Below, in pieces: positions 9,089 to 20,878 of a DNA stretch of 64,000 nucleotides. The stretch comes from Desulfosudaceae bacterium (GTDB taxonomy: Bacteria > Desulfobacterota > Desulfobacteria > Desulfobacterales > Desulfosudaceae), in assembly GCA_963674745.2 (NCBI GenBank), contig CAXXDV010000003.1, forward strand, positions 384,001 to 448,000, given 5' to 3'. How positions within the stretch are numbered: position 1 is the first letter of the stretch; every line of letters starts with the position of its first letter. The translations under genes and the position numbers were made by a program. Below the pieces are notes generated by a model that was given only the letters and a program-made list of their open reading frames with translations, searched no databases and was not told the origin of the DNA.

Positions 9089-11371
9089 TTACTTTAAAGG
9101 CCTGTTTCCGGCTACCTGTCTCAATTTTGCGCTTAAGAGATCCTGATTGATAGGTTTTGAAATATAATCATCCATTCCGGCCGATAGAAAATGTTCCCGG
9201 TCACCTTTTATCGCATGGGCGGTCAGGGCGATGATGGGGATCCGTTCTTCAGAAGGTGACCGGGCTTCTATCTTTCGTATTTCCCGGGTTGCTGAAAAAC
9301 CATCCATGACCGGCATCTGTCCGTCCATCAGGATAAGATCAAAGCGGTTGCGCCGGTATCGGTCAACGGCCTCCCGGCCATTTCCCACCACCGTCACCAG
9401 GTGACCCATTTTCTCCAGTATTACCTGGATAACCCGTCGATTTAGGGCGTTGTCTTCGGCTACCAGGATTTGCATGAGGGACGAACCGGTATCGGTTTCC
9501 CTGACGGTTTCATGCGCCTGCCCGTTTCCGTCAAAAAGAGGTGTTTCTTGATCGGTCGGGGAAACATTCACGTCAACAGGATCGTCAGAAACGTCCTGGT
9601 TAAGCGCGCGGGACAAGACGTCTTTGAGCATTTTTTTCTTTATTGGTCGGGTTAGACAGTATGCACCCGGCATATTTTTTTTTATGGCTTCCAGAATGTC
9701 TGAAGAATCAGGAACCAGGACGATAGAGGGGGCGGAGGTGATGTCTTGCGAGATCAGTAGCGGCTCAACAGCCTGTATATCGTTAAGGCCCGATCTGATC
9801 AGGATGACGTCAAAAGTTGTTCTGTCCGGGGACTTGTCGTTCAGGCGTTTTTGAGCCGATGGTATATCGCGTGCAATTTCCAGCGAACACCCCCAGTCAC
9901 GTAAATACGTTTCCAGTATTTTCGTGGTAATGGTCTCTTCGCCAATCAGCAGCGTTGAAATACCGTTGAACAGGTTTTCATCTTCCGTATAACCGGTCGG
10001 CCGGTTTTCTGTCGTTGCCAGGTTATATGGCAAAGAAAAAGAGAAATCGGAACCTTTACCGGGTTGGCTGCTGACCAGGATGGTGTCGCCCCCCATTAAC
10101 AGAACCAGCTGGTTGGAAATGGCCAGACCCAGTCCGGTACCGCCATAAAGGCGCGTTGTGGAAGCATCGGCCTGGGTAAACGGTTCAAATAACAGTGGAA
10201 GCTGTTTTTTTTCAATACCGATACCGGTATCTGAAACAAGAAATTCAAGGCAGACGTCGTCATCTTTGCGGTATTTTACTTTGACGTAGACGGCCACCTC
10301 ACCGGTTTGGGTATATTTAATGGCGTTGTTGATCAGATTGGAAATCACCTGATGCAAACGCTCCGGGTCGCCGTTGAGATGGTCGGGCACCTCTTTGGGA
10401 ACCAGGCAACCAAAATCCAGCCCCTTCCGGTAAGCCGAAAAGGAAAACATATCCGAAAGTTTTTTCATGCGTTCCCGGAGGCTGAAGGGAATGTTTTCTA
10501 CATCATATTTTCCGGCCTCAATTTTTGAGAAATCAAGTATATCACCGATCAATGATCCCAGAACCGTCGCGCTCTGCTTGATACTGGCCGTATACTCCCG
10601 TTGTTCCTCTGTCTGCCCGGTCATTTCCAGGAGGTCTGCCAGTCCAATAATACCGCTTAACGGAGTTCGCAGTTCGTGGCTCATATTGGCCAGAAAGCTG
10701 CTTTTGGCTTTATTGGCGGCTTCGGCTTTTTCCTTTTCGATCTGTAAGGAAAACAGCAGATCATTGTTTTCAAAGGTCAGTTGAATAGTGGCGGCCAGGG
10801 TACGACTCATGCGGCGGGCGGTGAAGGTGATGACCAGGCCGAATAGTATGATCATCATGCCCATGGTGACGTGCATGGTGCCGCCGGTGACAAAAAACAT
10901 TGTTGTCAAAGGTACCAGTGCGGGAACCACAAAAAGATAATAGGTCTCCATTCGAATATAATAGGTGGTCATTCCCCCGGCTGCCATACCGGCGATAACA
11001 AAGGCCAGAAAAACCTGATACGTAATTGAGTCGGAAAAGAGGAGGACGCCGGCAGCCCCCCAGGCCACGCCGCCGGCAGAGACGCCGGCCATCATCAGGT
11101 GGAACCAGAATTTCGTATTCTCTATCTGCTGGGGAGCTCTGCGGTAGGTGAAACAGGCGGTATAACGCAGGGTGGTGACCAGTAGTATCATGGCATACCA
11201 GCCGAAAAGGACGGTATGGGATATGTTTTGCCAAAACAGGGCGACCAGAATAGTGCTATTGATGATCGTGCTGAGCATACTGAAAGGCAGGTGGCTGTAG
11301 AGCTGTTTTGTCTGTTCGCCAAGTGTGCGCCGGGCGGCCCTGCTGGGATTTTCTTTTGGGGAAGCAACCAT
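9089..11371 (-). CDS. Membrane hybrid sensor histidine kinase/response regulator
   Basis: Multiple TMs; [13 protein letters not shown]-box; GGTGLGL; C-terminal receiver ([13 protein letters not shown]); degenerate internal receiver. Confidence 0.92.
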
Positions 11372-11497
11372 GATTTTCCCGGAGTTAAGGGGATAAAAAC
11401 AGTAGATGAATAACTATTTGTTTTAATACATTATATATAAATAGTTATAATATAAAAATGTATATCGTGTCAATGTTTTTAAAAAGGCTGAAAATTA

Positions 11498-11527
11498 TTG
11501 ACATTTAATGCCTATTTTAATAATACT
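11498..11527 (+). promoter_or_regulatory. Probable sigma-70 promoter of the TonB operon
   Basis: Perfect TTGACA at 11498; AT-rich -10-like taatact about 17-18 nt downstream. Confidence 0.45.
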
Positions 11528-11540
11528 TAAATAATTTAAA

Positions 11541-11706
11541 GATCATCAAGAAGGTGATCGCGGTTAACAGATTATAACCAACTGAAAAGCAAACAAGTCC
11601 CGCCGGTATCGTCTTGAACCGGTGGGCGAAATATTAAATAGCACGAAAAAATAAAGCCATGAAGGTGATCAGGCTGAATGCCTGTTTTACTTTCGTGGCT
11701 TTTTTT
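11541..11706 (+). promoter_or_regulatory. Structured 5' leader ending in an intrinsic terminator (attenuator/riboswitch candidate)
   Basis: Hairpins gatcatc/ggtgatc, ggtta/taacc, cccgccggt/accggtggg; 16-bp stem 11653-68 with 11687-702 plus T7, just before the ATG at 11717. Confidence 0.6.
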
Positions 11707-11716
11707 ATTGGAAGAG

Positions 11717-13111
11717 ATGAAAAAATATTCAATCGCTATTTATGCTGTGATTCTTTTTTACTGCCTGTCTGCCTCAGCCGCCGATCGGCAAATAGCCGAA
11801 GACACCAACAACGATGGCCGGACAGACCGAATCATTTTTTATGACCGCGCCGGCAAAATCGAACACCTGGAGATGGATACCGATCATGACGGTGCCATGG
11901 ACCGCTTTCAATATTACGAAAAGGAAGCCCTTGTACGAATGGAAAGAGACACGGATGCCGACGGGCATTCCGACTGTCTGGATTATTTCAAAGACGGCAA
12001 AAGAGCCCGTCAGGAGCGTCTTGACAAGGAGAACCGGGTATACCAGGTGACGTTGTTTGATGAGAAGGAACAGCCCGCAGAAATTAGAAAAGACACAACC
12101 GGCAGCGGTGTTTTTGATGCGGTTTATTATTTTAACGACGGTGAAATCAACGCCGCAACACGTGACACGGACGAGAACAGTGTCGTTAATATTCATGAAA
12201 CATTTTCAGACAACCTGCCGGTAAAACGGACGGTAGATGATAACGAAGACGGCCGCCCGGAGCAGATTACGCTGTATGATGACCAGGGGCTGGTTCGGGA
12301 GAGCCGCCAGGACACTTCCCATTGCGGTTTTCTAGACAGGCGCACGGTTTTTAAAAAGGGCAAAATGCGTCTCCAGACAATGGACAACAACCAGGACGGT
12401 AAGGCCGACGACACGCTTTTGTTTAATGATCGGGAAGAACGCCTGCGGATGGAGAGCGACACCGACTTTGACGGAACCATCGATACCCGGCAGTTTTTTA
12501 AGGGCAATCGGATTGTCCGCATGGAAAAAGATGATAACCATGACGGCCGGGTGAACCTGAAGGTTTATTACAACAACCGGGAGGAGAAAGAAAAACTGAT
12601 CAAGGACGCCGATGGTGACGGCTTTTTTGAAATTACCCAGTGGTATGACATCCCGGAATGGCCCCTGGTGATCGAGGTCGACAAGGACCAGGATCAGAAG
12701 CCCGAGGCCCGTTTCTGCTATATCGACGGCGTGCTTCGGGAAAAATCCCTGGATGAGGACCATGACGGCACCATCGATCTGATGGAATTTTTCGATCGGG
12801 ACGGGCGGCTGATCAAAAGCCGGGAAGACGAAATGGGTACCGGTGTATTGACCCTGACCTGGTTTTATGACGATGCGGAACAGGCTGTTCGGGCGGAAAA
12901 AGACACCAATGCCGACGGTCTGCCTGATGTCCGGTTTTTTTATGAGGCAGGCCGGGTGACGTCTGTAGAGGAAGACAGCAACCATGACGGTAAGCCCGAC
13001 GTCTGGGAAACCTATGACAATGCCGAAGCCCTGATCAAACGGGAAAAAGACCTGGACTATGACGGTCAGCCCGATGTCACGGAGACGGCAAAAGAAGAAA
13101 AGAAAAATTAA
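11717..13111 (+). CDS. Exported acidic repeat protein with ~18 tandem Dx[DN]xDG-type units
   Basis: Signal peptide MKKY..ASA; ~24-aa period, e.g. DTNNDG, DTDHDG, DTDADG, DADGDG, DLDYDG. Confidence 0.8.
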   Translation: MKKYSIAIYAVILFYCLSASAADRQIAEDTNNDGRTDRIIFYDRAGKIEHLEMDTDHDGAMDRFQYYEKEALVRMERDTDADGHSDCLDYFKDGKRARQERLDKENRVYQVTLFDEKEQPAEIRKDTTGSGVFDAVYYFNDGEINAATRDTDENSVVNIHETFSDNLPVKRTVDDNEDGRPEQITLYDDQGLVRESRQDTSHCGFLDRRTVFKKGKMRLQTMDNNQDGKADDTLLFNDREERLRMESDTDFDGTIDTRQFFKGNRIVRMEKDDNHDGRVNLKVYYNNREEKEKLIKDADGDGFFEITQWYDIPEWPLVIEVDKDQDQKPEARFCYIDGVLREKSLDEDHDGTIDLMEFFDRDGRLIKSREDEMGTGVLTLTWFYDDAEQAVRAEKDTNADGLPDVRFFYEAGRVTSVEEDSNHDGKPDVWETYDNAEALIKREKDLDYDGQPDVTETAKEEKKN

Positions 13112-13126
13112 AAAGGGACAAGAACA

Positions 13127-13732
13127 ATGTTTGATTTTTTAGCCAAAGGTGGGGTGCTGGTCATCCCCATTCTGCTCTGCTCGGTATTTACCGTGGCGAT
13201 TTTTTTGGAACGCGTCATCACCTTCGCCCGTATGCGTACCCGGGGTGCGGGTCTGGCCGAAAAAATAGCCGGTCTTTTGCTCAAAGGCGAAAAAGAGGCG
13301 GCCCAGAAAACAGCCCGGGAAAGCGATTCCCCCATGGGCCGAATACTGGCCCAAGCCATTGAAGTCAAGGACAGTGACCGTGAATTGCTGGAAACCGTTA
13401 TGGTCAACGCCACGGACGAGGAAGTGAGAAACCTGTCCACCTACGTACAGACCCTGGCCACCATCGGCAACATTGCTCCTTTGCTGGGGCTGCTGGGTAC
13501 GGTCATCGGCATGATCAAGGCCTTTATGGTCATCCAGCAGATGGGCGGTAAGGTCAATGCGGCTGTGCTGGCCGGCGGTATCTGGGAGGCTATGCTGACC
13601 ACGGCCCTGGGCCTGGCCGTGGCCCTGCCCACCATGATCGCCCACAGCTATCTGGTAGCCCGCATCGACAGTTATGAAGCGCGACTGCAGAACGGGTCGG
13701 TCACTTTCATGAAAGCCATTACCCGGAAATAG
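13127..13732 (+). CDS. exbB: MotA/TolQ/ExbB proton channel
   Basis: APLLGLLGTVIGMI, GIWEAMLTTALGL. Confidence 0.9.
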   Translation: MFDFLAKGGVLVIPILLCSVFTVAIFLERVITFARMRTRGAGLAEKIAGLLLKGEKEAAQKTARESDSPMGRILAQAIEVKDSDRELLETVMVNATDEEVRNLSTYVQTLATIGNIAPLLGLLGTVIGMIKAFMVIQQMGGKVNAAVLAGGIWEAMLTTALGLAVALPTMIAHSYLVARIDSYEARLQNGSVTFMKAITRK

Positions 13733-13741
13733 GAGGCAGAT

Positions 13742-14149
13742 ATGCTGGTTCATCGGAAAAAAAGACCGCGTTATGCCATCCAGGCACCGCTGACCTCATT
13801 GATCGATATCGTTTTCATGCTGCTGATCTATTTTTTGCTGACCACCAACTTTATGGTGGACGAAGGCATCAAGATAAAATTGCCGCAGGCCCGGGCGTCG
13901 GCGCCGCAGACGCAACAGGAAATAACCGTCTATGTGGACAGGGAGGGGCGGGCTTATATTAACAACAAGCCGGTCCCGGAAGAGATCCTGTTTACCAGAA
14001 TCAAGGAAATGATCGGCGGCCAATCCGACCGGCTGGTGGTGGTCAAGGCCGACCGGGAAGTTGTGTTGAACAAAGCCGTCAAGGTCATGGACCTGGCCAA
14101 GGCCGCCGGCGCCGGCCGGCTCTGCCTGGCCACGGAGAAGGATTTGTAA
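13742..14149 (+). CDS. exbD: Biopolymer transport protein ExbD
   Basis: LTSLIDIVFMLLIYFLLT, VVVKAD. Confidence 0.9.
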   Translation: MLVHRKKRPRYAIQAPLTSLIDIVFMLLIYFLLTTNFMVDEGIKIKLPQARASAPQTQQEITVYVDREGRAYINNKPVPEEILFTRIKEMIGGQSDRLVVVKADREVVLNKAVKVMDLAKAAGAGRLCLATEKDL

Positions 14150-14152
14150 TCC

Positions 14153-14803
14153 GTGTCTGAATACAAGAAAAAGCCCAATCATCTGATGCGGGGCATGATT
14201 ACCGTGTCCCTGGCCCTGCATGTGTTGATATTCCTGCATATCGCCGGTATCTACCGGTCCAGTGCGCTGACCTATATCGAACTGACACTGAACGATATAT
14301 CCAAACCATCGGCACGCGCCATTCCCAGGCCACGGAAACGGCACCAGGCCCCCAAAGCGGAGACGGTCAGCCGGCCGGAAGTGTCTCGGGACCCCATACC
14401 CGTGTCGAACATGGCGCCCGCGAACCAACGATTTTCCAAGTCTCTTATGGCCGACATCAGCGCGCCGTCGGTACCTGTTAGCGGTTGGAACATGAACGGC
14501 GCGCCGGTGTTCGCCACCAGCGCCGATTATTTCGACATGGTACGCATGAAGATTGAAAGTCGCAAGCAATACCCGGAATCCGCCCGGGACAAACAGATCC
14601 AGGGCCGCGTCCGGGTCGGGTTTGTCATTACGCCCGACGGGCAGATATCCTCCCTTGAGATCGTTAAAAGTTCACGGCATGGCATCCTGGACCGGGCCGC
14701 TCTGGAAGCGGTCAGAAATGCCGCTCCTCTTCCCCGACCGCCGGCAAATCTGTTTAAGGAAAAACTGCTGGTGGAAATAACCATATTATTTGAACTGATG
14801 TGA
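14153..14803 (+). CDS. tonB: Energy transducer TonB
   Basis: SLALH TM motif; YPESAR..IQGRV; SSRHGILDRAAL. Confidence 0.88.
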   Translation: MSEYKKKPNHLMRGMITVSLALHVLIFLHIAGIYRSSALTYIELTLNDISKPSARAIPRPRKRHQAPKAETVSRPEVSRDPIPVSNMAPANQRFSKSLMADISAPSVPVSGWNMNGAPVFATSADYFDMVRMKIESRKQYPESARDKQIQGRVRVGFVITPDGQISSLEIVKSSRHGILDRAALEAVRNAAPLPRPPANLFKEKLLVEITILFELM

Positions 14804-14826: not shown

Positions 14827-16905
14827 ATGATAAAAAACGTATTCAAAAAACTGTACTGTTGTAAAAAAGCATGTCTGATGTTTTTATTCGTGCCGGCTCT
14901 TTTTTTGGGGATTTTACCCTCAGCCGGGGCCGCTGACGATACGTCCAGTCCCACGGTTTATAAACTGGATAATATCGTTGTATCCACCACCCGCAACGAA
15001 ATACCGGTCAGTGACGCGGCGCAGACTGTCACGGTTCTGTCTAAAGAAGATATCATGGCCTCACCGTTTGACCGGGTAGAAGACATTATCCGCAGCGTTC
15101 CCGGCGTTTACAATACCCGGCATTTCGGCACCCAGACCAGCGGTGTCTCCAATCCCATCACCGTCCGCGGCGTCGGCGGCAACCGGGTCCTGTTGCTGGT
15201 GGACGGTGTCCCCCAGAACGACAATTTTAACAACTCCATCGCCTGGGTGGCCTGGGGTCATATCCCCAAGGAGGCCATCGAACGGATTGAAATCGTCCGC
15301 GGTCCTTCTTCGGCCATGTACGGTTCGGAAGGCATCGGCGGTGTGGTCCATATCATTACCAAAACGCCGGACACGGTCCGCAATACTTCCGTCCGGGCCG
15401 AAGCCGGTACGTCCGACACGTATGCCGGATACGGTTTTCACAGCCAGACAATGGATAATCTCGGCCTGCTGATCGCCGGCGGATATGAAGAATCGGACGG
15501 TTTTTACATGACGGAAGACCCTGAAAGCTACGAGATCAAACGGCATCGGGAGGTCGGTAAAGTTTTCGGGAAAGTGCGCTATGAGCTGGATGATACCGCC
15601 AGTCTCGAAATTTCAACCTTGTATTATGACCATGAAACCGGTAAGGGGCGGAAATATTTTTATGATGAACTCCAGCTCAACCATTACACCGTGAATTATA
15701 CCCGGCAGGCCGACACCGGTCTGGGGATCAAGGGCCTGATGTATTACAACCGGGCGGATAAGTTCGCTTACCAGGACAGTTCCAAAGACAACTTCGCTTC
15801 TCTGCTTCGCAAGGAAGATTCGCCTTCTTCAACCTGGGGCGCGGACCTGCAGGGTATTGTGCCGATCAGCGATCGTGCGGATTTGACGCTGGGGGCGGCG
15901 TTTAAGAAAACCGCCTGGGATTATGACGACAAATTCGTCAACAACCCCCGTGATGAAGGGGCGGAAGGCACCCAGCAGTATCTGGCGCCTTTTGTCAACC
16001 TGAACATGAAATTTTTGGCCGATGACCGGCTGGTGGTCGACCTGGGTGCCCGGTATGACTGGATCAAAACCAGTGACGGGGCCAACTGGGATGATGATCC
16101 GGATGCAGGGGCACCCTACAGTAACGAATACGGATCCGAGAATGAGAGCAGTTTTTCACCAAAAATCGGCGTCGCCTTCCATCCGGACGCCAAAACCACT
16201 TTGCGGGCGTCAGTCGGCAAAGGCTTCCGGGCGCCCAGTCTGTTTGAACTTTACAAGGTCCATGTGCGCCAGGGCGGGCGGTCATACCGGCACGCCAACC
16301 CGAATCTGGAACCGGAAGAAATCTGGGCTTACGATATCGGTGTGGAACGGATGCTGTTGGACAGGCTGCGGGGCAGCCTGACATTTTATCAGTCTTTTGC
16401 GGATGATTATATCGGCACCCGGCTGATCAACAGCTATGAAAAAAACGGCAAAACGTTTAATGAGTATATCCTGGACAACATCAGCCAAGTGGAAATGCAT
16501 GGCGTCGAGGCGGAATTGAACTGGTATCCGCGAACCGACCTGGCATTTTTCGGCAATTACACCTGGAATGTGTCTGAAATCGAAAAAAACGAGGCGGATC
16601 CGTTTGAAGAGGGCAAATACCTGACCAATGACCCCAAACATAAAATCCATGTCGGCGCGACCTACAGCAATCCTGATCTTGTCAACGTCACGCTGCTTTG
16701 GAACCGTTATATCGACAAGTACTATGATATTGACGAACTGACCCAGGGAAAGGACAGTTTCTGGAGCGTTGACCTTCAACTTTCCCGCCGTTTTTTGGAT
16801 CGTCTGACCGCCTACGTGAGCGCGGAAAATATTTTTGACAGCGTGGACAATGAAGCTATCGCTCCCGGTGCCATTTATAAGGGCGGCGTGAAACTTGAAT
16901 TTTAA
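14827..16905 (+). CDS. TonB-dependent outer-membrane receptor
   Basis: TonB-box-like DNIVVS; plug VLLLVDG and IERIEIVRGPSSAMYG; terminal F. Confidence 0.92.
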   Translation: MIKNVFKKLYCCKKACLMFLFVPALFLGILPSAGAADDTSSPTVYKLDNIVVSTTRNEIPVSDAAQTVTVLSKEDIMASPFDRVEDIIRSVPGVYNTRHFGTQTSGVSNPITVRGVGGNRVLLLVDGVPQNDNFNNSIAWVAWGHIPKEAIERIEIVRGPSSAMYGSEGIGGVVHIITKTPDTVRNTSVRAEAGTSDTYAGYGFHSQTMDNLGLLIAGGYEESDGFYMTEDPESYEIKRHREVGKVFGKVRYELDDTASLEISTLYYDHETGKGRKYFYDELQLNHYTVNYTRQADTGLGIKGLMYYNRADKFAYQDSSKDNFASLLRKEDSPSSTWGADLQGIVPISDRADLTLGAAFKKTAWDYDDKFVNNPRDEGAEGTQQYLAPFVNLNMKFLADDRLVVDLGARYDWIKTSDGANWDDDPDAGAPYSNEYGSENESSFSPKIGVAFHPDAKTTLRASVGKGFRAPSLFELYKVHVRQGGRSYRHANPNLEPEEIWAYDIGVERMLLDRLRGSLTFYQSFADDYIGTRLINSYEKNGKTFNEYILDNISQVEMHGVEAELNWYPRTDLAFFGNYTWNVSEIEKNEADPFEEGKYLTNDPKHKIHVGATYSNPDLVNVTLLWNRYIDKYYDIDELTQGKDSFWSVDLQLSRRFLDRLTAYVSAENIFDSVDNEAIAPGAIYKGGVKLEF

Positions 16906-16930
16906 AAATATAAAAAAGGAATTTTTGATC

Positions 16931-17638
16931 ATGAAAAAAAGTGTGCTATGGATAATGACCATACTGTTGTTAACCACCCCGGCTTCCGCTCATTATCTGT
17001 GGGTTTCCGTTCAAGACGGTCACTATGCTGTCAATCGCGGTATACTCTCAAAGCCTCAGGAAGCCTATGATCCCTCTTGTGTCAAAACCATCAAAGCTTA
17101 TGGCCGGGATGGAATGACCATACCTGTTCAGGCCGTTGCCGAACCTGAACAAATGATTTTTAAAGCGGATCGGCCGGCAGCTATGGCGGTTGTCGTCAGT
17201 GACTGGGGATATCGTGTTAATACCACATCCGGAAAGAAATTTATGACCCGGCAACAGGCCGAGGAAAAAGGGTTGAATGTTATCAGCGCTTTTTTTTCAA
17301 GGCAGTTTTCAAAAACGATTTTTACTTTTTCAGCCGAGCAGCTTAATCCCGCAGGTCTGACGTTTGAAATTGTTCCCCTGGCTGATCCGACCGCTGCCAA
17401 GCCGGGTTCTTCGATTCCGTTCAAGCTGCTTTATCAGGGCCAGCCCCTGGAGAAGATTACCATTTATACCCATGACCGGCAAAAGATCGATACCAATGAA
17501 CAAGGCGAATTTCAGGTGCCCGTTCAACAGTCCGGATTCCACTCTTTTTATGCCAGATATAAAATCCCTGAAAAAAACAATCCTGAAATGGATTACCTGC
17601 AGTTAATGACATTCATGACCTTTACAACAAAGCAATAA
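16931..17638 (+). CDS. DUF4198-like periplasmic protein associated with Ni/Co uptake
   Basis: Signal peptide ASA/HYLW with N-terminal His; FEIVPLADP, LLYQGQPL, TNEQGEF. Confidence 0.75.
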   Translation: MKKSVLWIMTILLLTTPASAHYLWVSVQDGHYAVNRGILSKPQEAYDPSCVKTIKAYGRDGMTIPVQAVAEPEQMIFKADRPAAMAVVVSDWGYRVNTTSGKKFMTRQQAEEKGLNVISAFFSRQFSKTIFTFSAEQLNPAGLTFEIVPLADPTAAKPGSSIPFKLLYQGQPLEKITIYTHDRQKIDTNEQGEFQVPVQQSGFHSFYARYKIPEKNNPEMDYLQLMTFMTFTTKQ

Positions 17639-17760: not shown

Positions 17761-18216
17761 ATGATGCGATTGTTTTTATGGATAACGGTTATAATGCTGA
17801 CGGCGGTCTCGCCGGACCTTTCTTTTGCCCATGGTATGGTTCATCATTTTACGCAGGAAGAGGCCGTGGTTATTCGGGCGGCCTATGACGACGGCGAACC
17901 CATGAGTTATGCCGCGGTAAAAATTTATGCCCCGGACAACGCGAAGATCGAGCACCAGAACGGCCGCACCGATAAAAACGGCTGTTTCGCCTTTATCCCG
18001 GATGCCCCCGGCCAATGGCATCTGACGATTGACGGCGGCATGGGGCATATGATCACCACCGACGTGACGGTTGATGAAGACCTTGCCCTGCCAGCCGAGC
18101 CGTCCGAAGTGTCCCACCAACTGCCCCGATTTTATGGCATGGCCATGGGGTTGAGTATTATTTTCGGGCTGACCGGCTTTCTGGCCTGGTTCAAAAGCCT
18201 CAAGCAATCACCATAA
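17761..18216 (+). CDS. Ni/Co transport accessory protein (NikL/CbiL-like) with C-terminal membrane anchor
   Basis: SFA/HG; YDDGEPM..V.IYAP; GRTDKNG.FAF.PD..G.W; GMGH; C-terminal TM. Confidence 0.65.
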   Translation: MMRLFLWITVIMLTAVSPDLSFAHGMVHHFTQEEAVVIRAAYDDGEPMSYAAVKIYAPDNAKIEHQNGRTDKNGCFAFIPDAPGQWHLTIDGGMGHMITTDVTVDEDLALPAEPSEVSHQLPRFYGMAMGLSIIFGLTGFLAWFKSLKQSP

Positions 18217-18227
18217 CCGGTGTCCGG

Positions 18228-19055
18228 TTATTGAACGATATTGACCTTGAACTTAACGCGGTCGTTAAAACTCCGGGCATCGTTGACCGGGTTCCGGATG
18301 ATGATCTCACCCATCTTCACCCCGGGTGTCGTCCATGTCATATAGGTATAGTAAGGGAAGAATTTGCCGGGGGAAATTGGCGGTATCTGCACGGTCAGCG
18401 GCCATTGCTCCGGAAAGTTCAAGTCCATGGAGCAGGCGGGGCTGATGGCGCATCCATAATTATATACATCCAGGCCGATGAAAATTTTATCGTTGACGCC
18501 GCCATTGATAAATTTTTCCTGACAGATGCTGGGATTTTTGCAGAATCCCACATCCGGGCGGTTTTGGACGCCAATGCTGTAAGTGGCGGTATTATTGTTT
18601 TCATTGGACTCATCAACCTGGTGATGCGCGTCCAGGGTGACGGTATACGAGACCGCCAGACACCGATCAACCGACACGCCGAGTTCTCCTGAAAAGGTCA
18701 GGCTCTGGTTCGGACCGGGCACATCTAAATAATCACTTCTTCCGGTTTGGGGGGTTTCATTGAATCCGACCAGCATTTTACTCACTGTTGAAGGGCCACC
18801 GTTGTTTCTGATCACCAGTTGATAGGAACAGGTGGCACCGTTTTGAACTGTAGCCGGTTCCAGCTTGAATGTCTGGACCATAAGATCGGGTTTGGCGGGT
18901 GTGGCCGGCGTTACGGCGCCCGGAGGCCTGTTTTTGATTACAGAAGGTGTAACTTGTCTGGATGGCGCCGGCTTCAGTCTGACGTCCGCGCCATCGGCCT
19001 GGAATAAAAAAACCATTGATAAAATTAGGCTGAGAATAATCGGTCTCACGTTCAC
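18228..19055 (-). CDS. Secreted CARDB (Ig-like) domain protein
   Basis: Signal peptide; KPDLMV..IRNNG..LDAHHQVDESNENNN; second degenerate CARDB. Confidence 0.75.
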   Translation of the reverse strand: MNVRPIILSLILSMVFLFQADGADVRLKPAPSRQVTPSVIKNRPPGAVTPATPAKPDLMVQTFKLEPATVQNGATCSYQLVIRNNGGPSTVSKMLVGFNETPQTGRSDYLDVPGPNQSLTFSGELGVSVDRCLAVSYTVTLDAHHQVDESNENNNTATYSIGVQNRPDVGFCKNPSICQEKFINGGVNDKIFIGLDVYNYGCAISPACSMDLNFPEQWPLTVQIPPISPGKFFPYYTYMTWTTPGVKMGEIIIRNPVNDARSFNDRVKFKVNIVQ

Positions 19056-19147: not shown

Positions 19148-20878
19148 TTATTTTTCGAACAGCGACAGGTAATTGTTGTAAAGCGCAGGATGTACACGGG
19201 AATAGGCGTCAAAGTCGCCGAGCAGTTCCATGCCGGGTATGATCGCCCGTACGACCGGCAGGCCGATATCTTTCCGGGTCAGGTCAACATAACAGGGCTG
19301 ATAGTGGTTTTTAATGAGCAGGGTTTCCAGCAGGACAAGGTCGGATGCATGATCATTGGTGGAATAGTCGGGCAGGTTTTCGTAACCCACCATGACCAGT
19401 TCCGTTGACGCCGGTCGAGTGGGCGGCGGGTTGGGAAAAGGGCAGGTCGTTTCGGTAATGGCTGAAATAATGGCACGCCGGGCATCCAGGTGAGCCGCAG
19501 TACCGGTGTGTATGATACCGGATTGTTCAACAACAAAACAGCGGCAGCAGGGAACGCCCATAGCCGGCGTAATATCCTGAAACCAGAGATCAATACCGGC
19601 CCGGCCGTAAGCCTCAAGAAGGGCTTCGATTCGGGCATCATGGGCCACCAGCCGGAAGCAGGTCGACAGGTCGTAGGGCACCGTGGCCGCCTGGTGCCGC
19701 TCAATAACTTCCAGCAGTGCGGCAACCCTGGCCTGGGCCGGGGTATTGCCTGATGCCAGGCCGGTAGATCCCAGTCCGGAAAACAGGGACGGTTCATCCA
19801 GGTTGCAGAACAGAAAGAGGCACTGGGCTGGAACCCATATCGGCCGGGTGTTTTCGTTCCGGTCGTGTGGATCGGGCGTTACACCCTCAACCCAGTGCAG
19901 GGTCTGATCACGGTAAGCAACTTCCAAAGACAGGCTGGAGGGATCGATGGCATTACCAACCCGTATTTCGTTGAACGTTGCCCGGCGCAACGGGTAGTCG
20001 TTCTGATAATCCGCCAGGCCGTCGTCCGATACCGCGGCAAAGGCCGAACAGCGCTCTACGATTTCCATCATCAATGAGGCCCGGGCCGCGTCCAGGGACA
20101 GCCCTCTGCCGTAACTGGTCTGTTCCCCTGAAAGGGAAAACCGGTTTCGCCGGTGATCAACCCGGCGGGCAAATTGCCATGATCGCAGAAGGCCGATGGG
20201 ACTTAAACTGGCTTCATGCCGCATGAGTTGCCCCAGTTCCACGCCGGCCTTTTCCAGCCGTTGGGCGGCGGTTGCTGCCGTCTGATCCGGGGATGGCGTC
20301 CTGGGTGGCGAGGTGCTGTTTTGACGGGTCGATACGGCCAGTTCGGATAAGGTCGCCGTCTGCCTGGTCGGTTGATTCTCAATAGTCAGTGGCGGCAGAC
20401 CCGTCTCTTCGGGGGGTATCAACGGCTTGTGTTCCTGCAGGTTGGTTCTGAAAAAAGTCGTCCATTGCCGATGAAGGGACTGATCCGGTTCCAGAAACGA
20501 ACGCAGATAAATCAACGGGGTGTGGCGGCTTATTTCGTCAATTGTTTCCGGCGAAAACTGTCCGGCCAGAGCGTCTCTTCCCTTTGTCAGCAGCAGGTGC
20601 TCGGCAACCAGGGCCCGGTAGACAGGGTTTTCTGCTTCACTGCTTTGGTTTAATAGCTGCTGCAGGGCATCGGTGGATAGTGAAGTAATACGCGTCAAAA
20701 CGTACTGGTGTAAGAAATCATCCATGGGCCGGGATTTTAACAGTGGCAACGCGTCTTCTGTGGACAACGCCTCATCCGGTGTCACGACGAAGAAGCCTGT
20801 TTGGTGGCGGGTTGTTTCCCGTGTTAATGTATAAGCCAGTTTTTTATTTTTCAAAAAGACCTCGTCTATTCGAATCAC
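19148..20878 (-). CDS. YcaO-like family protein with N-terminal extension
   Basis: SYGRG..AR.S.MMEIVER; STGLASGNT..ALLEVIERH; VVRAIIPGME. Confidence 0.85.
   Translation of the reverse strand: MIRIDEVFLKNKKLAYTLTRETTRHQTGFFVVTPDEALSTEDALPLLKSRPMDDFLHQYVLTRITSLSTDALQQLLNQSSEAENPVYRALVAEHLLLTKGRDALAGQFSPETIDEISRHTPLIYLRSFLEPDQSLHRQWTTFFRTNLQEHKPLIPPEETGLPPLTIENQPTRQTATLSELAVSTRQNSTSPPRTPSPDQTAATAAQRLEKAGVELGQLMRHEASLSPIGLLRSWQFARRVDHRRNRFSLSGEQTSYGRGLSLDAARASLMMEIVERCSAFAAVSDDGLADYQNDYPLRRATFNEIRVGNAIDPSSLSLEVAYRDQTLHWVEGVTPDPHDRNENTRPIWVPAQCLFLFCNLDEPSLFSGLGSTGLASGNTPAQARVAALLEVIERHQAATVPYDLSTCFRLVAHDARIEALLEAYGRAGIDLWFQDITPAMGVPCCRCFVVEQSGIIHTGTAAHLDARRAIISAITETTCPFPNPPPTRPASTELVMVGYENLPDYSTNDHASDLVLLETLLIKNHYQPCYVDLTRKDIGLPVVRAIIPGMELLGDFDAYSRVHPALYNNYLSLFEK

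Follow-up and report, generated by a model that had tools for sequence, protein, structure and literature searches.

What controls a TonB-type metal uptake operon in a bacterium that has no NikR? This question is raised by a 64,000-nt stretch of DNA from a Desulfosudaceae bacterium (GCA_963674745.2, contig CAXXDV010000003.1, positions 384,001–448,000 of the forward strand), which we call the window. A structured leader RNA with an intrinsic terminator lies there in front of the genes for ExbB, ExbD, TonB and a TonB-dependent receptor. NikR is the usual nickel-responsive DNA-binding repressor of nik/cbi uptake genes and acts at promoters; a profile search did not find NikR_C in the source genome. 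The window leader almost certainly belongs to a conserved and widespread leader class. On balance, we regard this class as probably a new kind of nickel-responsive, protein-dependent transcription-attenuation leader that controls nickel (Ni/Co) uptake.

Structure of the leader

The earlier note on this DNA, made from the sequence alone, had described a promoter, three hairpins, a 16-bp terminator stem with seven T residues and a duplicated 10-mer. All of these were read again in the same places (Table 1), and the minimum free energy (MFE) fold agreed. The MFE of positions 11530–11716 was −63.6 kcal/mol, and the fold yielded precisely the four hairpins read from the sequence. The leader structure exceeds chance: 200 dinucleotide shuffles averaged −37.1 ± 3.9 kcal/mol (z = −6.75), and none of the 200 was as stable. 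With a 16-bp stem and an inner hairpin followed by U7, the leader ends in an intrinsic (Rho-independent) terminator. After U7 comes GGAAGAG and then the ATG at 11717, ten bases past the U-tract. The loop of the 5' hairpin (HP1) is the first copy of a conserved loop motif, ANGAA, and the transcript is predicted from the sequence to start a few bases 5' of this hairpin. The 5' arm of the terminator holds a mini-hairpin, HP2. The 10-mer GAAGGTGATC is present at 11550–11559 and again at 11661–11670. A covariance model (R1) was built from 105 related terminators. The window terminator was its sole strong match in the 64 kb, with a score of 55.6 bits (E 4.6e-11) that is inflated by the presence of the window site in the seed.

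The earlier note had proposed an Rfam search and had doubted that the leader was a cobalamin or NiCo (czcD) riboswitch. Rfam 15 at gathering score matched only tRNA across the 64-kb window. At E ≤ 10, nothing relevant was matched in 11380–11800, where the best scores were about 20 bits to unrelated small RNAs. The cobalamin riboswitch (RF00174) gave no match in the window at gathering score or in 11380–11800 at E ≤ 10. The NiCo (czcD) riboswitch (RF02683) was likewise unmatched by either search, and the genes downstream of the leader are for uptake, not efflux. No Rfam family was matched in 20 related loci at gathering score, in 20 short related loci at E ≤ 5, or in 15 DUF3842/CooT loci. These results indicated that the element is not cobalamin, NiCo or another filed family, and the doubt of the note was borne out. 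A full-text search of an incomplete literature collection turned up neither this motif nor a riboswitch or attenuator for nickel uptake, and it gave no function for DUF3842. The sole match for "DUF3842" was a paper that, in its accessible part, was unrelated, and a text search of the accessible part of a 2025 review on RNA-binding antiterminators did not find the word nickel. Thus the leader class is apparently undescribed.

Conservation of the leader class

In a DNA search of 40 related genomes, the terminator (11646–11711) was found at 75–91% identity both within the family of the source genome and across further families of the order. Some of these genomes hold two or three terminator copies, and HP1 was matched separately. 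The relatives share one plan of promoter, 5' hairpin, variable middle and terminator. Their HP1 stems are of unrelated sequence with a common NNGAA loop. The terminator consensus is AAAGCCA-N-GAAGG ... C(U)UUC-N'-UGGCUUUUUUU, in which N and N' covary (U-A, C-G, G-C and U-G). As the search pattern described below fixes most terminator positions in the loci that it selects, covariation there is carried by the N:N' pair, the inner hairpin and the relatives found by blast. The consensus of six leaders from the window's family retains HP1 (7 pairs, of which one shows a compensatory change), the CCGCCGG hairpin (7 pairs, with C-G in three leaders and G-C in three at one position) and the terminator, and it drops the GGTTA/TAACC hairpin. 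The conservation and covariation that the note had left to a comparison of relatives were found, and the element is tied to metal (nickel-type) uptake genes.

Compact leaders are without the second and third hairpins. In 29 of them, HP1 starts 50–65 nt (maximum 110) before the terminator. Eighteen of the 29 have TTGAC at 33–47 nt before HP1, compared with 2 of 29 in a control interval, indicating that HP1 lies at the extreme 5' end of the transcript. Of 106 ANGAA pentamers located 20–110 nt upstream of terminators, 31 had at least five contiguous stem pairs; for pentamers in other parts of these loci the figure was 52 of 2981. Under a looser definition (NNGAA hairpin within 300 nt), 49 of 119 loci contained 58 hairpins, whereas the opposite strand gave 9. 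Beyond close relatives, HP1 and the terminator 5' arm share only the ANGAA loop motif closed by C-G. When the 3' arm was omitted, 18 of 30 leaders (that of the window and 17 of 29 others) had an MFE fold with HP1, HP2 and the apical hairpin next to one another. The apical terminator loops hold GAA in 63 of 137 cases, with 33 expected from shuffled loops; C-AGAA-G is the commonest form, and the window has C-UGAAU-G.

The window leader has every feature of the class. It carries an ANGAA 5' hairpin near the promoter (TTGACA 43 nt upstream), a GCC-AYGAA-GG terminator arm and nickel-type uptake genes, and its genome encodes DUF3842.

Genes downstream of the motif

The pattern GCCANGAAGG-N18-40-TTCNTGGCTTTTT was scanned in one genome per species. 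At least 114 loci matched, compared with a chance expectation of about 7 by our own estimate. Loci L025–L028, L039, L041, L059, L070, L094, L111, L121 and L122 were excluded from the counts because they looked like coding or chance matches. Taxa among the matches listed were Desulfobacterales, Desulfobacca, Syntrophobacteraceae, Nitrospirota, Thermodesulfovibrio, NC10, Acidobacteriota and many Clostridia/Bacillota.

Among the matches listed, 66 of 107 first downstream open reading frames (ORFs) had a Pfam match. Uptake parts made up 49 of the 66: CbiM (8), TonB-dependent receptor Plug (6), energy-coupling factor S-component (5), ExbB (4), NikB-like permease (4), NikA-like SBP_bac_5 (3), DUF4198 (3), TonB (2), outer-membrane porin types (8), DUF6802 (2), DUF3450 (2), FecCD (1) and ABC ATPase (1). 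Enzymes accounted for 11: S-adenosylmethionine (SAM) methyltransferases (6), FmdE (2), CobN (1), LarB-like AIRC (1) and LarE-like PP-loop (1). The families of the other 6 were unrelated. Upstream neighbours among the matches listed included CbiK (3), CbiQ with CbiO (2), tetrapyrrole methylase (2), DUF4198 (2), ExbD with TonB (2) and DUF3842 (3). The motif marks a nickel (or Ni/Co) acquisition regulon. Nickel is favoured as the metal because of LarB/LarE, the NikA/B types and the complementarity to NikR.

R1 found exactly three sites in the 5.5-Mb source genome, all before uptake operons. They precede the operon in the window, another TonB-dependent receptor, and a DUF4198-CbiM-...-CbiQ operon. 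Of the two sites other than the window, one lies on contig C1 and is in the seed; the other, at C3:1238315, is outside the seed and scored 34.7 bits. The third copy in the genome has a variant C-UGAA-G tetraloop hairpin.

The motif was also seen before FmdE-like genes (L032, L086 and L131), class I SAM methyltransferases (L046, L047, L083, L088, L090 and L098), a CobN-type chelatase (L078), a LarB-like gene (L042) and LarE-like PP-loop genes (L057, L076 and L116), the Lar genes being those of the nickel-pincer cofactor. There are hints here of further nickel-dependent pathways under the same control. In two Nitrospirota loci (L044 1567–1791 and L115 82–279), the first gene encodes a His-rich protein of 66–75 aa (..HW.EHN.EH..YR.WA..) with no Pfam family, possibly a small metal-binding protein to judge from its residues.

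Co-occurrence with DUF3842, CooT and NikR

Three unrelated loci (L085, L087 and L104) have a DUF3842 gene immediately 5' of the leader in the same orientation. In L085 and L087, a 62-aa ORF starting with MCEANAYL lies between DUF3842 and the leader; it is CooT (PF10133, 77–89 bits). CooT-like ORFs were found within 1.5 kb of the motif in L048, L065, L084, L085, L087 and L093 (truncated), out of 80 loci with full flanks. In L185, a complete motif precedes the DUF3842-CooT pair itself. In genome G340, the motif stands beside DUF3842, and no CooT was found in the genome. At that locus (L104 625–1438), DUF3842 is preceded by a TM1506/DUF1893 gene, and TM1506 might take the place of CooT in some clostridia.

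The source genome has one DUF3842-CooT pair (G000:C1:1261161–1261768; L143 1495–2117) with a 7-nt gap, in which the DUF3842 gene occupies G000:C1:1261161–1261544. The pair is located downstream of a tRNA-like 3' end with a terminator and upstream of an IspH-like gene.

A phylum sample of 301 genomes was searched for CooT, DUF3842, NikR_C and the motif pattern, which were found in 178, 116, 142 and 110 genomes, respectively. The coordinates of DUF3842 and CooT were adjacent in nearly all genomes with both. The pattern was present at least once in 83 of the 116 genomes with DUF3842, compared with 27 of the 185 without it. Of the 55 genomes with two or more pattern matches, 51 had DUF3842, 51 had CooT and 8 had NikR. 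Four genomes with two or more matches were without DUF3842; three of them had no covariance-model match, and one had a marginal match of 29.6 bits. Among the 64 genomes with CooT and without DUF3842, only 2 had two or more pattern matches. Conversely, G067 and G307, which have DUF3842 and no CooT, had three pattern matches each, and G067 has a 44-bit model match. Five of the 30 best CooT loci in this sample had the terminator within 1.5 kb on the same strand. DUF3842 and NikR seldom occurred together: 13 genomes had both, 103 had only DUF3842, 129 had only NikR, and 56 had neither.

A separate sample of 200 Clostridia genomes was taken from the class of a Terrisporobacter. DUF3842 was found in 68 and the pattern in 31; the pattern was present in 22 of the 68 genomes with DUF3842 and in 9 of the 132 without it. 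All 12 genomes whose matches had complementary, terminator-like arms contained DUF3842. NikR_C gave only 15 weak matches in the 200 genomes. The link between motif and DUF3842 is a strong association, not proof.

Properties of DUF3842 and CooT

DUF3842 is a highly conserved 140-aa protein without an informative name, with 68–88% identity among the best 120 of thousands of relatives. Of the best 8000 candidates scored, 7995 were relatives at E ≤ 1e-10. The invariant residues are D8, G9, G11–G13, G15, T37, N38, E57, D68, E85 and K101. The modelled structure (predicted local distance difference test score 89) has a Rossmann-like α/β fold, and only generic folds matched it (UbiX/CoaC, USP, FtsZ and dehydrogenases; TM-score about 0.5). 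An Atlas search with DUF3842 returned DUF3842 clusters only.

The CooT ORF of the source genome has 65 aa. It scored 80 bits with PF10133, against a cut-off of 27, and matched PDB 6FAN at E 2e-9. The ORF has Cys2 and the small β-barrel known from PDB 6FAN and 5N76. Cys2 and His57 were invariant in 25 sequences, and the TM-score of the model to 6FAN was 0.88. The nearest non-CooT fold match was a weak one to a RimM-type barrel (E 0.069). CooT reportedly once carried the annotation of an Sm-like protein with predicted RNA binding. According to the accessible part of one review, CooT is a dimer that binds one Ni(II) per dimer via Cys2 with a Kd of 9 nM, and its role was called unclear (PMC6006190). 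The accessible part of a genomic survey places CooT in just 16% of clade E and 6% of clade F CO dehydrogenase (CODH) operons (PMC13056359). This low share fits a main role of CooT elsewhere.

Proposed mechanism and alternatives

The leader very probably works by regulated termination, to judge from its sequence and fold. The structure and its conservation, the genes of the regulon and the association with DUF3842 in NikR-free genomes lead us to infer regulated read-through, RNA binding by DUF3842/CooT, a nickel signal and a direction of action. Transcription would start just upstream of HP1. The nascent RNA would then form up to three hairpins with an (A)NGAA loop closed by C-G, namely HP1, the weak HP2 (GCC-AYGAA-GG) and often the apical hairpin. 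Synthesis of the 3' arm would absorb HP2 into the long terminator stem, and with U7 transcription would stop before the first gene. Folding at least predicts that HP2 and the terminator compete with each other. A trans-acting factor that recognises ANGAA loops could pick HP2, and hence read-through, or the terminator, depending on nickel supply. DUF3842, with or without CooT, is slightly favoured as this factor on the genomic associations; DUF3842 would be the RNA-facing part and CooT the nickel-binding part where present. In the simplest wiring, the factor would hold HP1 and HP2 when nickel is scarce, so that termination is prevented and uptake is on, and would release them when nickel is bound. 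In the opposite wiring, a nickel-loaded factor would clamp HP1 and the apical loop and favour the terminator, as with PyrR and TRAP. A further step, that DUF3842 and CooT form a new nickel-sensing RNA-binding attenuation system that reads ANGAA loops and replaces NikR in much of Desulfobacterota, Nitrospirota and Clostridia, is put forward only as a tentative proposal.

Several observations weigh against the nickel-responsive, DUF3842-dependent reading. CbiK, CobN, CbiZ and tetrapyrrole methylase genes lie near some loci, which blurs the distinction between nickel and cobalt, and cobalt could be the metal for part of the regulon. Of the 119 pattern loci, 70 are without a strict NNGAA hairpin upstream; variants, generic or bidirectional terminators, or chance are possible for them. 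HP2 has only 3 bp in the window, and its family mean is 3.88 bp, a marginal excess over the 3.67 ± 0.07 obtained with permuted flanks. DUF3842 has no invariant Cys or His, its fold is of a nucleotide-binding type, and no RNA-binding relative was among the fold matches; instead of regulating the nickel regulon, it could serve within it as an enzyme or chaperone. In the 301 genomes, 33 of the 116 with DUF3842 had no pattern match. The counts treat related genomes as independent, which makes Fisher P values overstate the association. The pattern is also noisy: control matches in the 301-genome scan, judged by eye, were about one-eighth of the real ones.

The RNA itself might sense Ni2+, Co2+ or a nickel-related small molecule, with ANGAA loops docking around the ligand as the two ACGR loops of guanidine-II do and thereby setting whether the terminator forms. 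Such a riboswitch could draw on the small hairpins of the leader, of which two or three share a loop motif and one overlaps the expression platform; purine-rich loops could offer N7 ligands to Ni2+, and the motif spans several phyla. The 33 DUF3842-bearing genomes without a pattern match and the 27 matched genomes without DUF3842 also suit a self-sufficient RNA. However, very little unpaired sequence is conserved for a selective metal site, and a ligand-stabilised HP2 would turn uptake on with nickel, which is the wrong sign. The pattern matches in genomes without DUF3842 look like chance and mostly fail the covariance model. Because the presence of the motif follows the DUF3842 gene, a dependence that such an RNA would not need, a protein-dependent attenuator is likelier, and we consider a riboswitch unlikely. 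The earlier note had suggested a possibly undescribed metal- or cofactor-responsive attenuator; the lack of a known family and the link to metal uptake uphold the novelty and the metal, whereas a ligand-sensing RNA lost ground to a protein-dependent one. If a protein is involved, CooT might be the only RNA-binding nickel sensor and DUF3842 a bystander. The nanomolar Ni(II) affinity via Cys2 in the accessible part of PMC6006190, the invariant Cys2 and His in a small β-barrel, and the presence of CooT in 51 of the 55 motif-rich genomes agree with this. It is nevertheless highly improbable: G067, G307 and G340 have the motif and DUF3842 without CooT, and the nearest non-CooT fold match is weak. 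We rejected CooT as the sole factor on the 64 CooT-bearing genomes without DUF3842, nearly all of which have fewer than two motif matches.

The leader might also switch through its own strands, or not switch at all. In the strand swap considered by the earlier note, the HP1 arm GAUCAUC would pair with GGUGAUC in the terminator arm, or GCACGAAA (11641–11648) with the 3' arm, as an antiterminator, and HP1 would be the anti-antiterminator. GAAGGTGATC is truly duplicated in the window, as it is in the closest relative (L010) and roughly in L011 and L013. This duplication is peculiar to close relatives; elsewhere among the relatives and in the 29 compact leaders, what follows GAAGG in the terminator shows no relation to the HP1 stems. 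The pairing of GCACGAAA is feasible on paper, but its sequence is unconserved in relatives. The fold without the 3' arm keeps HP1 and yields HP2 with no long-range helix. We therefore give a strand swap very little credence and dropped both pairings. Alternatively, the element could encode a small RNA or serve as an insulator or a constitutive terminator, with the stem conserved for RNA stability or for binding of a general factor and the operon expressed by read-through or from another promoter. A promoter, a 5' hairpin and a strong terminator are indeed the anatomy of a small RNA gene, no stable antiterminator was predicted, and some pattern matches are bidirectional terminators between convergent genes (L038, L079, L109 and L133). 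However, the window and most relatives have a first gene on the leader strand that begins 10–60 nt past the U-tract, the downstream genes form one functional class, and positions 11707–11716 leave no space for a second promoter in the window. An element without a switch is thus quite improbable, and the protein-dependent attenuator is the reading that we retain.

Comparison with known regulatory systems

The leader was compared with known systems of similar design. In ANTAR leaders (targets of EutV, NasR and AmiR), as far as the accessible parts of the sources show, two hairpins share a loop motif, the weak second hairpin overlaps the terminator 5' arm, and a protein that holds both loops would prevent termination. 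Those hairpins have hexaloops, whereas the leader has ANGAA pentaloops closed by C-G and no Rfam match. The candidate protein here is DUF3842/CooT without an ANTAR domain, and the regulon is nickel uptake. ANTAR target loops have conserved positions A1 and G4. The window leader has the terminator overlap, but its pentaloops are of other sequence; on these RNA features, with no search made for ANTAR proteins, it is not an ANTAR target.

PyrR, TRAP and HutP are similar in that small ligand-sensing proteins bind repeated short motifs in leader RNA and so decide whether a terminator forms. The fold of PyrR is that of a nucleotide-binding enzyme, and the DUF3842 model is likewise of a nucleotide-binding type. 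They differ in signal (uridine monophosphate, tryptophan and histidine, respectively) and in motif, and they have no sequence or clear fold relation to DUF3842.

NiCo-AnGGAG, which Weinberg et al. reportedly described in 2017, is said to consist of tandem hairpins with purine-rich loops before Ni/Co genes in Clostridia and probably to bind a protein; the name was not found in the main text. On this description, ANGAAG differs from AnGGAG at one position, and the leader differs in its ANGAA(G) loops, its sequence-conserved terminator and its commonest occurrence in Desulfobacterota. No Rfam model matched 35 related loci or the window, the presence of NiCo-AnGGAG in Rfam being unconfirmed. Several apical loops of clostridial terminators in G451, G477, G528 and G380 are AAGGAA or AAGAAA (...GCUGU-AAGGAA-CAGC...). 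They resemble the reported AnGGAG loop, and a bridge between the two motifs is possible.

The NiCo (czcD) riboswitch is also tied to Ni/Co homeostasis. It forms a four-way junction and activates efflux genes; the leader, by contrast, precedes uptake genes. Guanidine-II (mini-ykkC) and the terminator-embedded aptamer HMP-PP (thiS) are tiny hairpins with conserved loops, with conserved nucleotides inside the terminator stem. They have other sequences and other regulons, and the motif described here depends on a protein gene. NikR shares the regulon and presumably the signal; it is absent from the source genome, and it rarely coexists with DUF3842.

The leader is a concrete and widespread cis-element for nickel import in anaerobes without NikR. 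Such anaerobes include many sulfate reducers, syntrophs, Nitrospirota and clostridia that depend on hydrogenases, CODH/acetyl-CoA synthase and lactate racemase. It permits sequence-based prediction of nickel-uptake genes, including a first gene with DxDxDG repeats, FmdE, methyltransferases and porins, and it flags DUF3842 and CooT as a candidate sensor–regulator pair. If the proposal is true, this would be the first metal-responsive protein–RNA attenuation system for nickel uptake. CooT, which to our knowledge has so far been seen only as a CODH maturation factor, would gain a main role in gene regulation, and the DUF3842 family, with at least 7995 relatives at E ≤ 1e-10, would gain an annotation.

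The operon and its neighbours

Table 1. Leader features and surrounding genes in the window.
Feature	Position	Strand	Basis and remarks
Sigma-70-type promoter	11498–11527	+	TTGACA 11498–11503, AATACT 11522–11527; promoter scan, 10/12 matches, 18-nt spacer
HP1, GATCATC-AAGAA-GGTGATC	11541–11559	+	MFE fold; 7 bp, pentaloop AAGAA, C-G closing pair
Second hairpin, GGTTA/TAACC	11562–11579	+	MFE fold; clade-specific, outside the general motif
Third hairpin, CCCGCCGGT/ACCGGTGGG (RNA CCCGCCGG/CCGGUGGG)	11599–11626	+	Conserved only within the window's family
HP2, GCC-AUGAA-GGU inside terminator 5' arm	11656–11666	+	MFE fold without terminator 3' arm
Intrinsic terminator, 16-bp outer stem	Stem 11656–11699, U7 11700–11706	+	Fold, covariance model; conserved 5' arm GCCAUGAAGG
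Apical hairpin of terminator, CAGGC-UGAAU-GCCUG	11670–11684	+	Fold
First operon gene, secreted protein, 464 aa	11717–13111	+	ORF; repeated DxDxDG-type motifs, no Pfam family at E ≤ 0.001
ExbB	13127–13732	+	Pfam scan
ExbD	13742–14149	+	Pfam scan
TonB	14153–14803	+	Pfam scan
TonB-dependent receptor	14827–16905	+	Pfam scan
DUF4198	16895–17638	+	Pfam scan
Small DUF4198-like protein	17761–18216	+	Pfam scan
Hybrid histidine kinase with receiver domain	9089–11371	−	ORF, Pfam scan; divergent from leader
CARDB-domain protein	18228–19055	−	Directly past uptake operon, opposite strand
YcaO cyclodehydratase-domain protein	19148–20878	−	Directly past uptake operon, opposite strand; adjoins CARDB protein

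Homologues of the first gene of the operon are the first ORF in 8 of 15 relatives, including L010, L015, L017–L019, L021 and L024. The first genes of other relatives encode TonB-dependent receptors, a periplasmic binding protein with a permease, a tetrapyrrole-methylase-like protein and others. Weak DUF6802 matches were obtained for the first ORFs of L049 and L053. The first-gene proteins are secreted, have about 460–590 aa and contain repeats of the form KDTDGDGxxD...FD..GKI.R.E.D.N.DG.MDRFQYY, with calcium-binding-type DxDxDG loops. A protein with such repeats was repeatedly seen to lead operons for TonB, ExbB, ExbD and a TonB-dependent receptor, and it may contribute to outer-membrane nickel acquisition as a component not recognised before.

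A hybrid kinase comparable to the one in the window is located upstream of the motif in L030 and L059, which could be a coincidence. In L094, from a metagenome-assembled genome of a Thermoplasmata archaeon, several tandem copies of CACGAAGG surround the pattern match at about 1497–1547, which may be related to the motif or due to chance, and the downstream ORF encodes a YdjM-type membrane protein.

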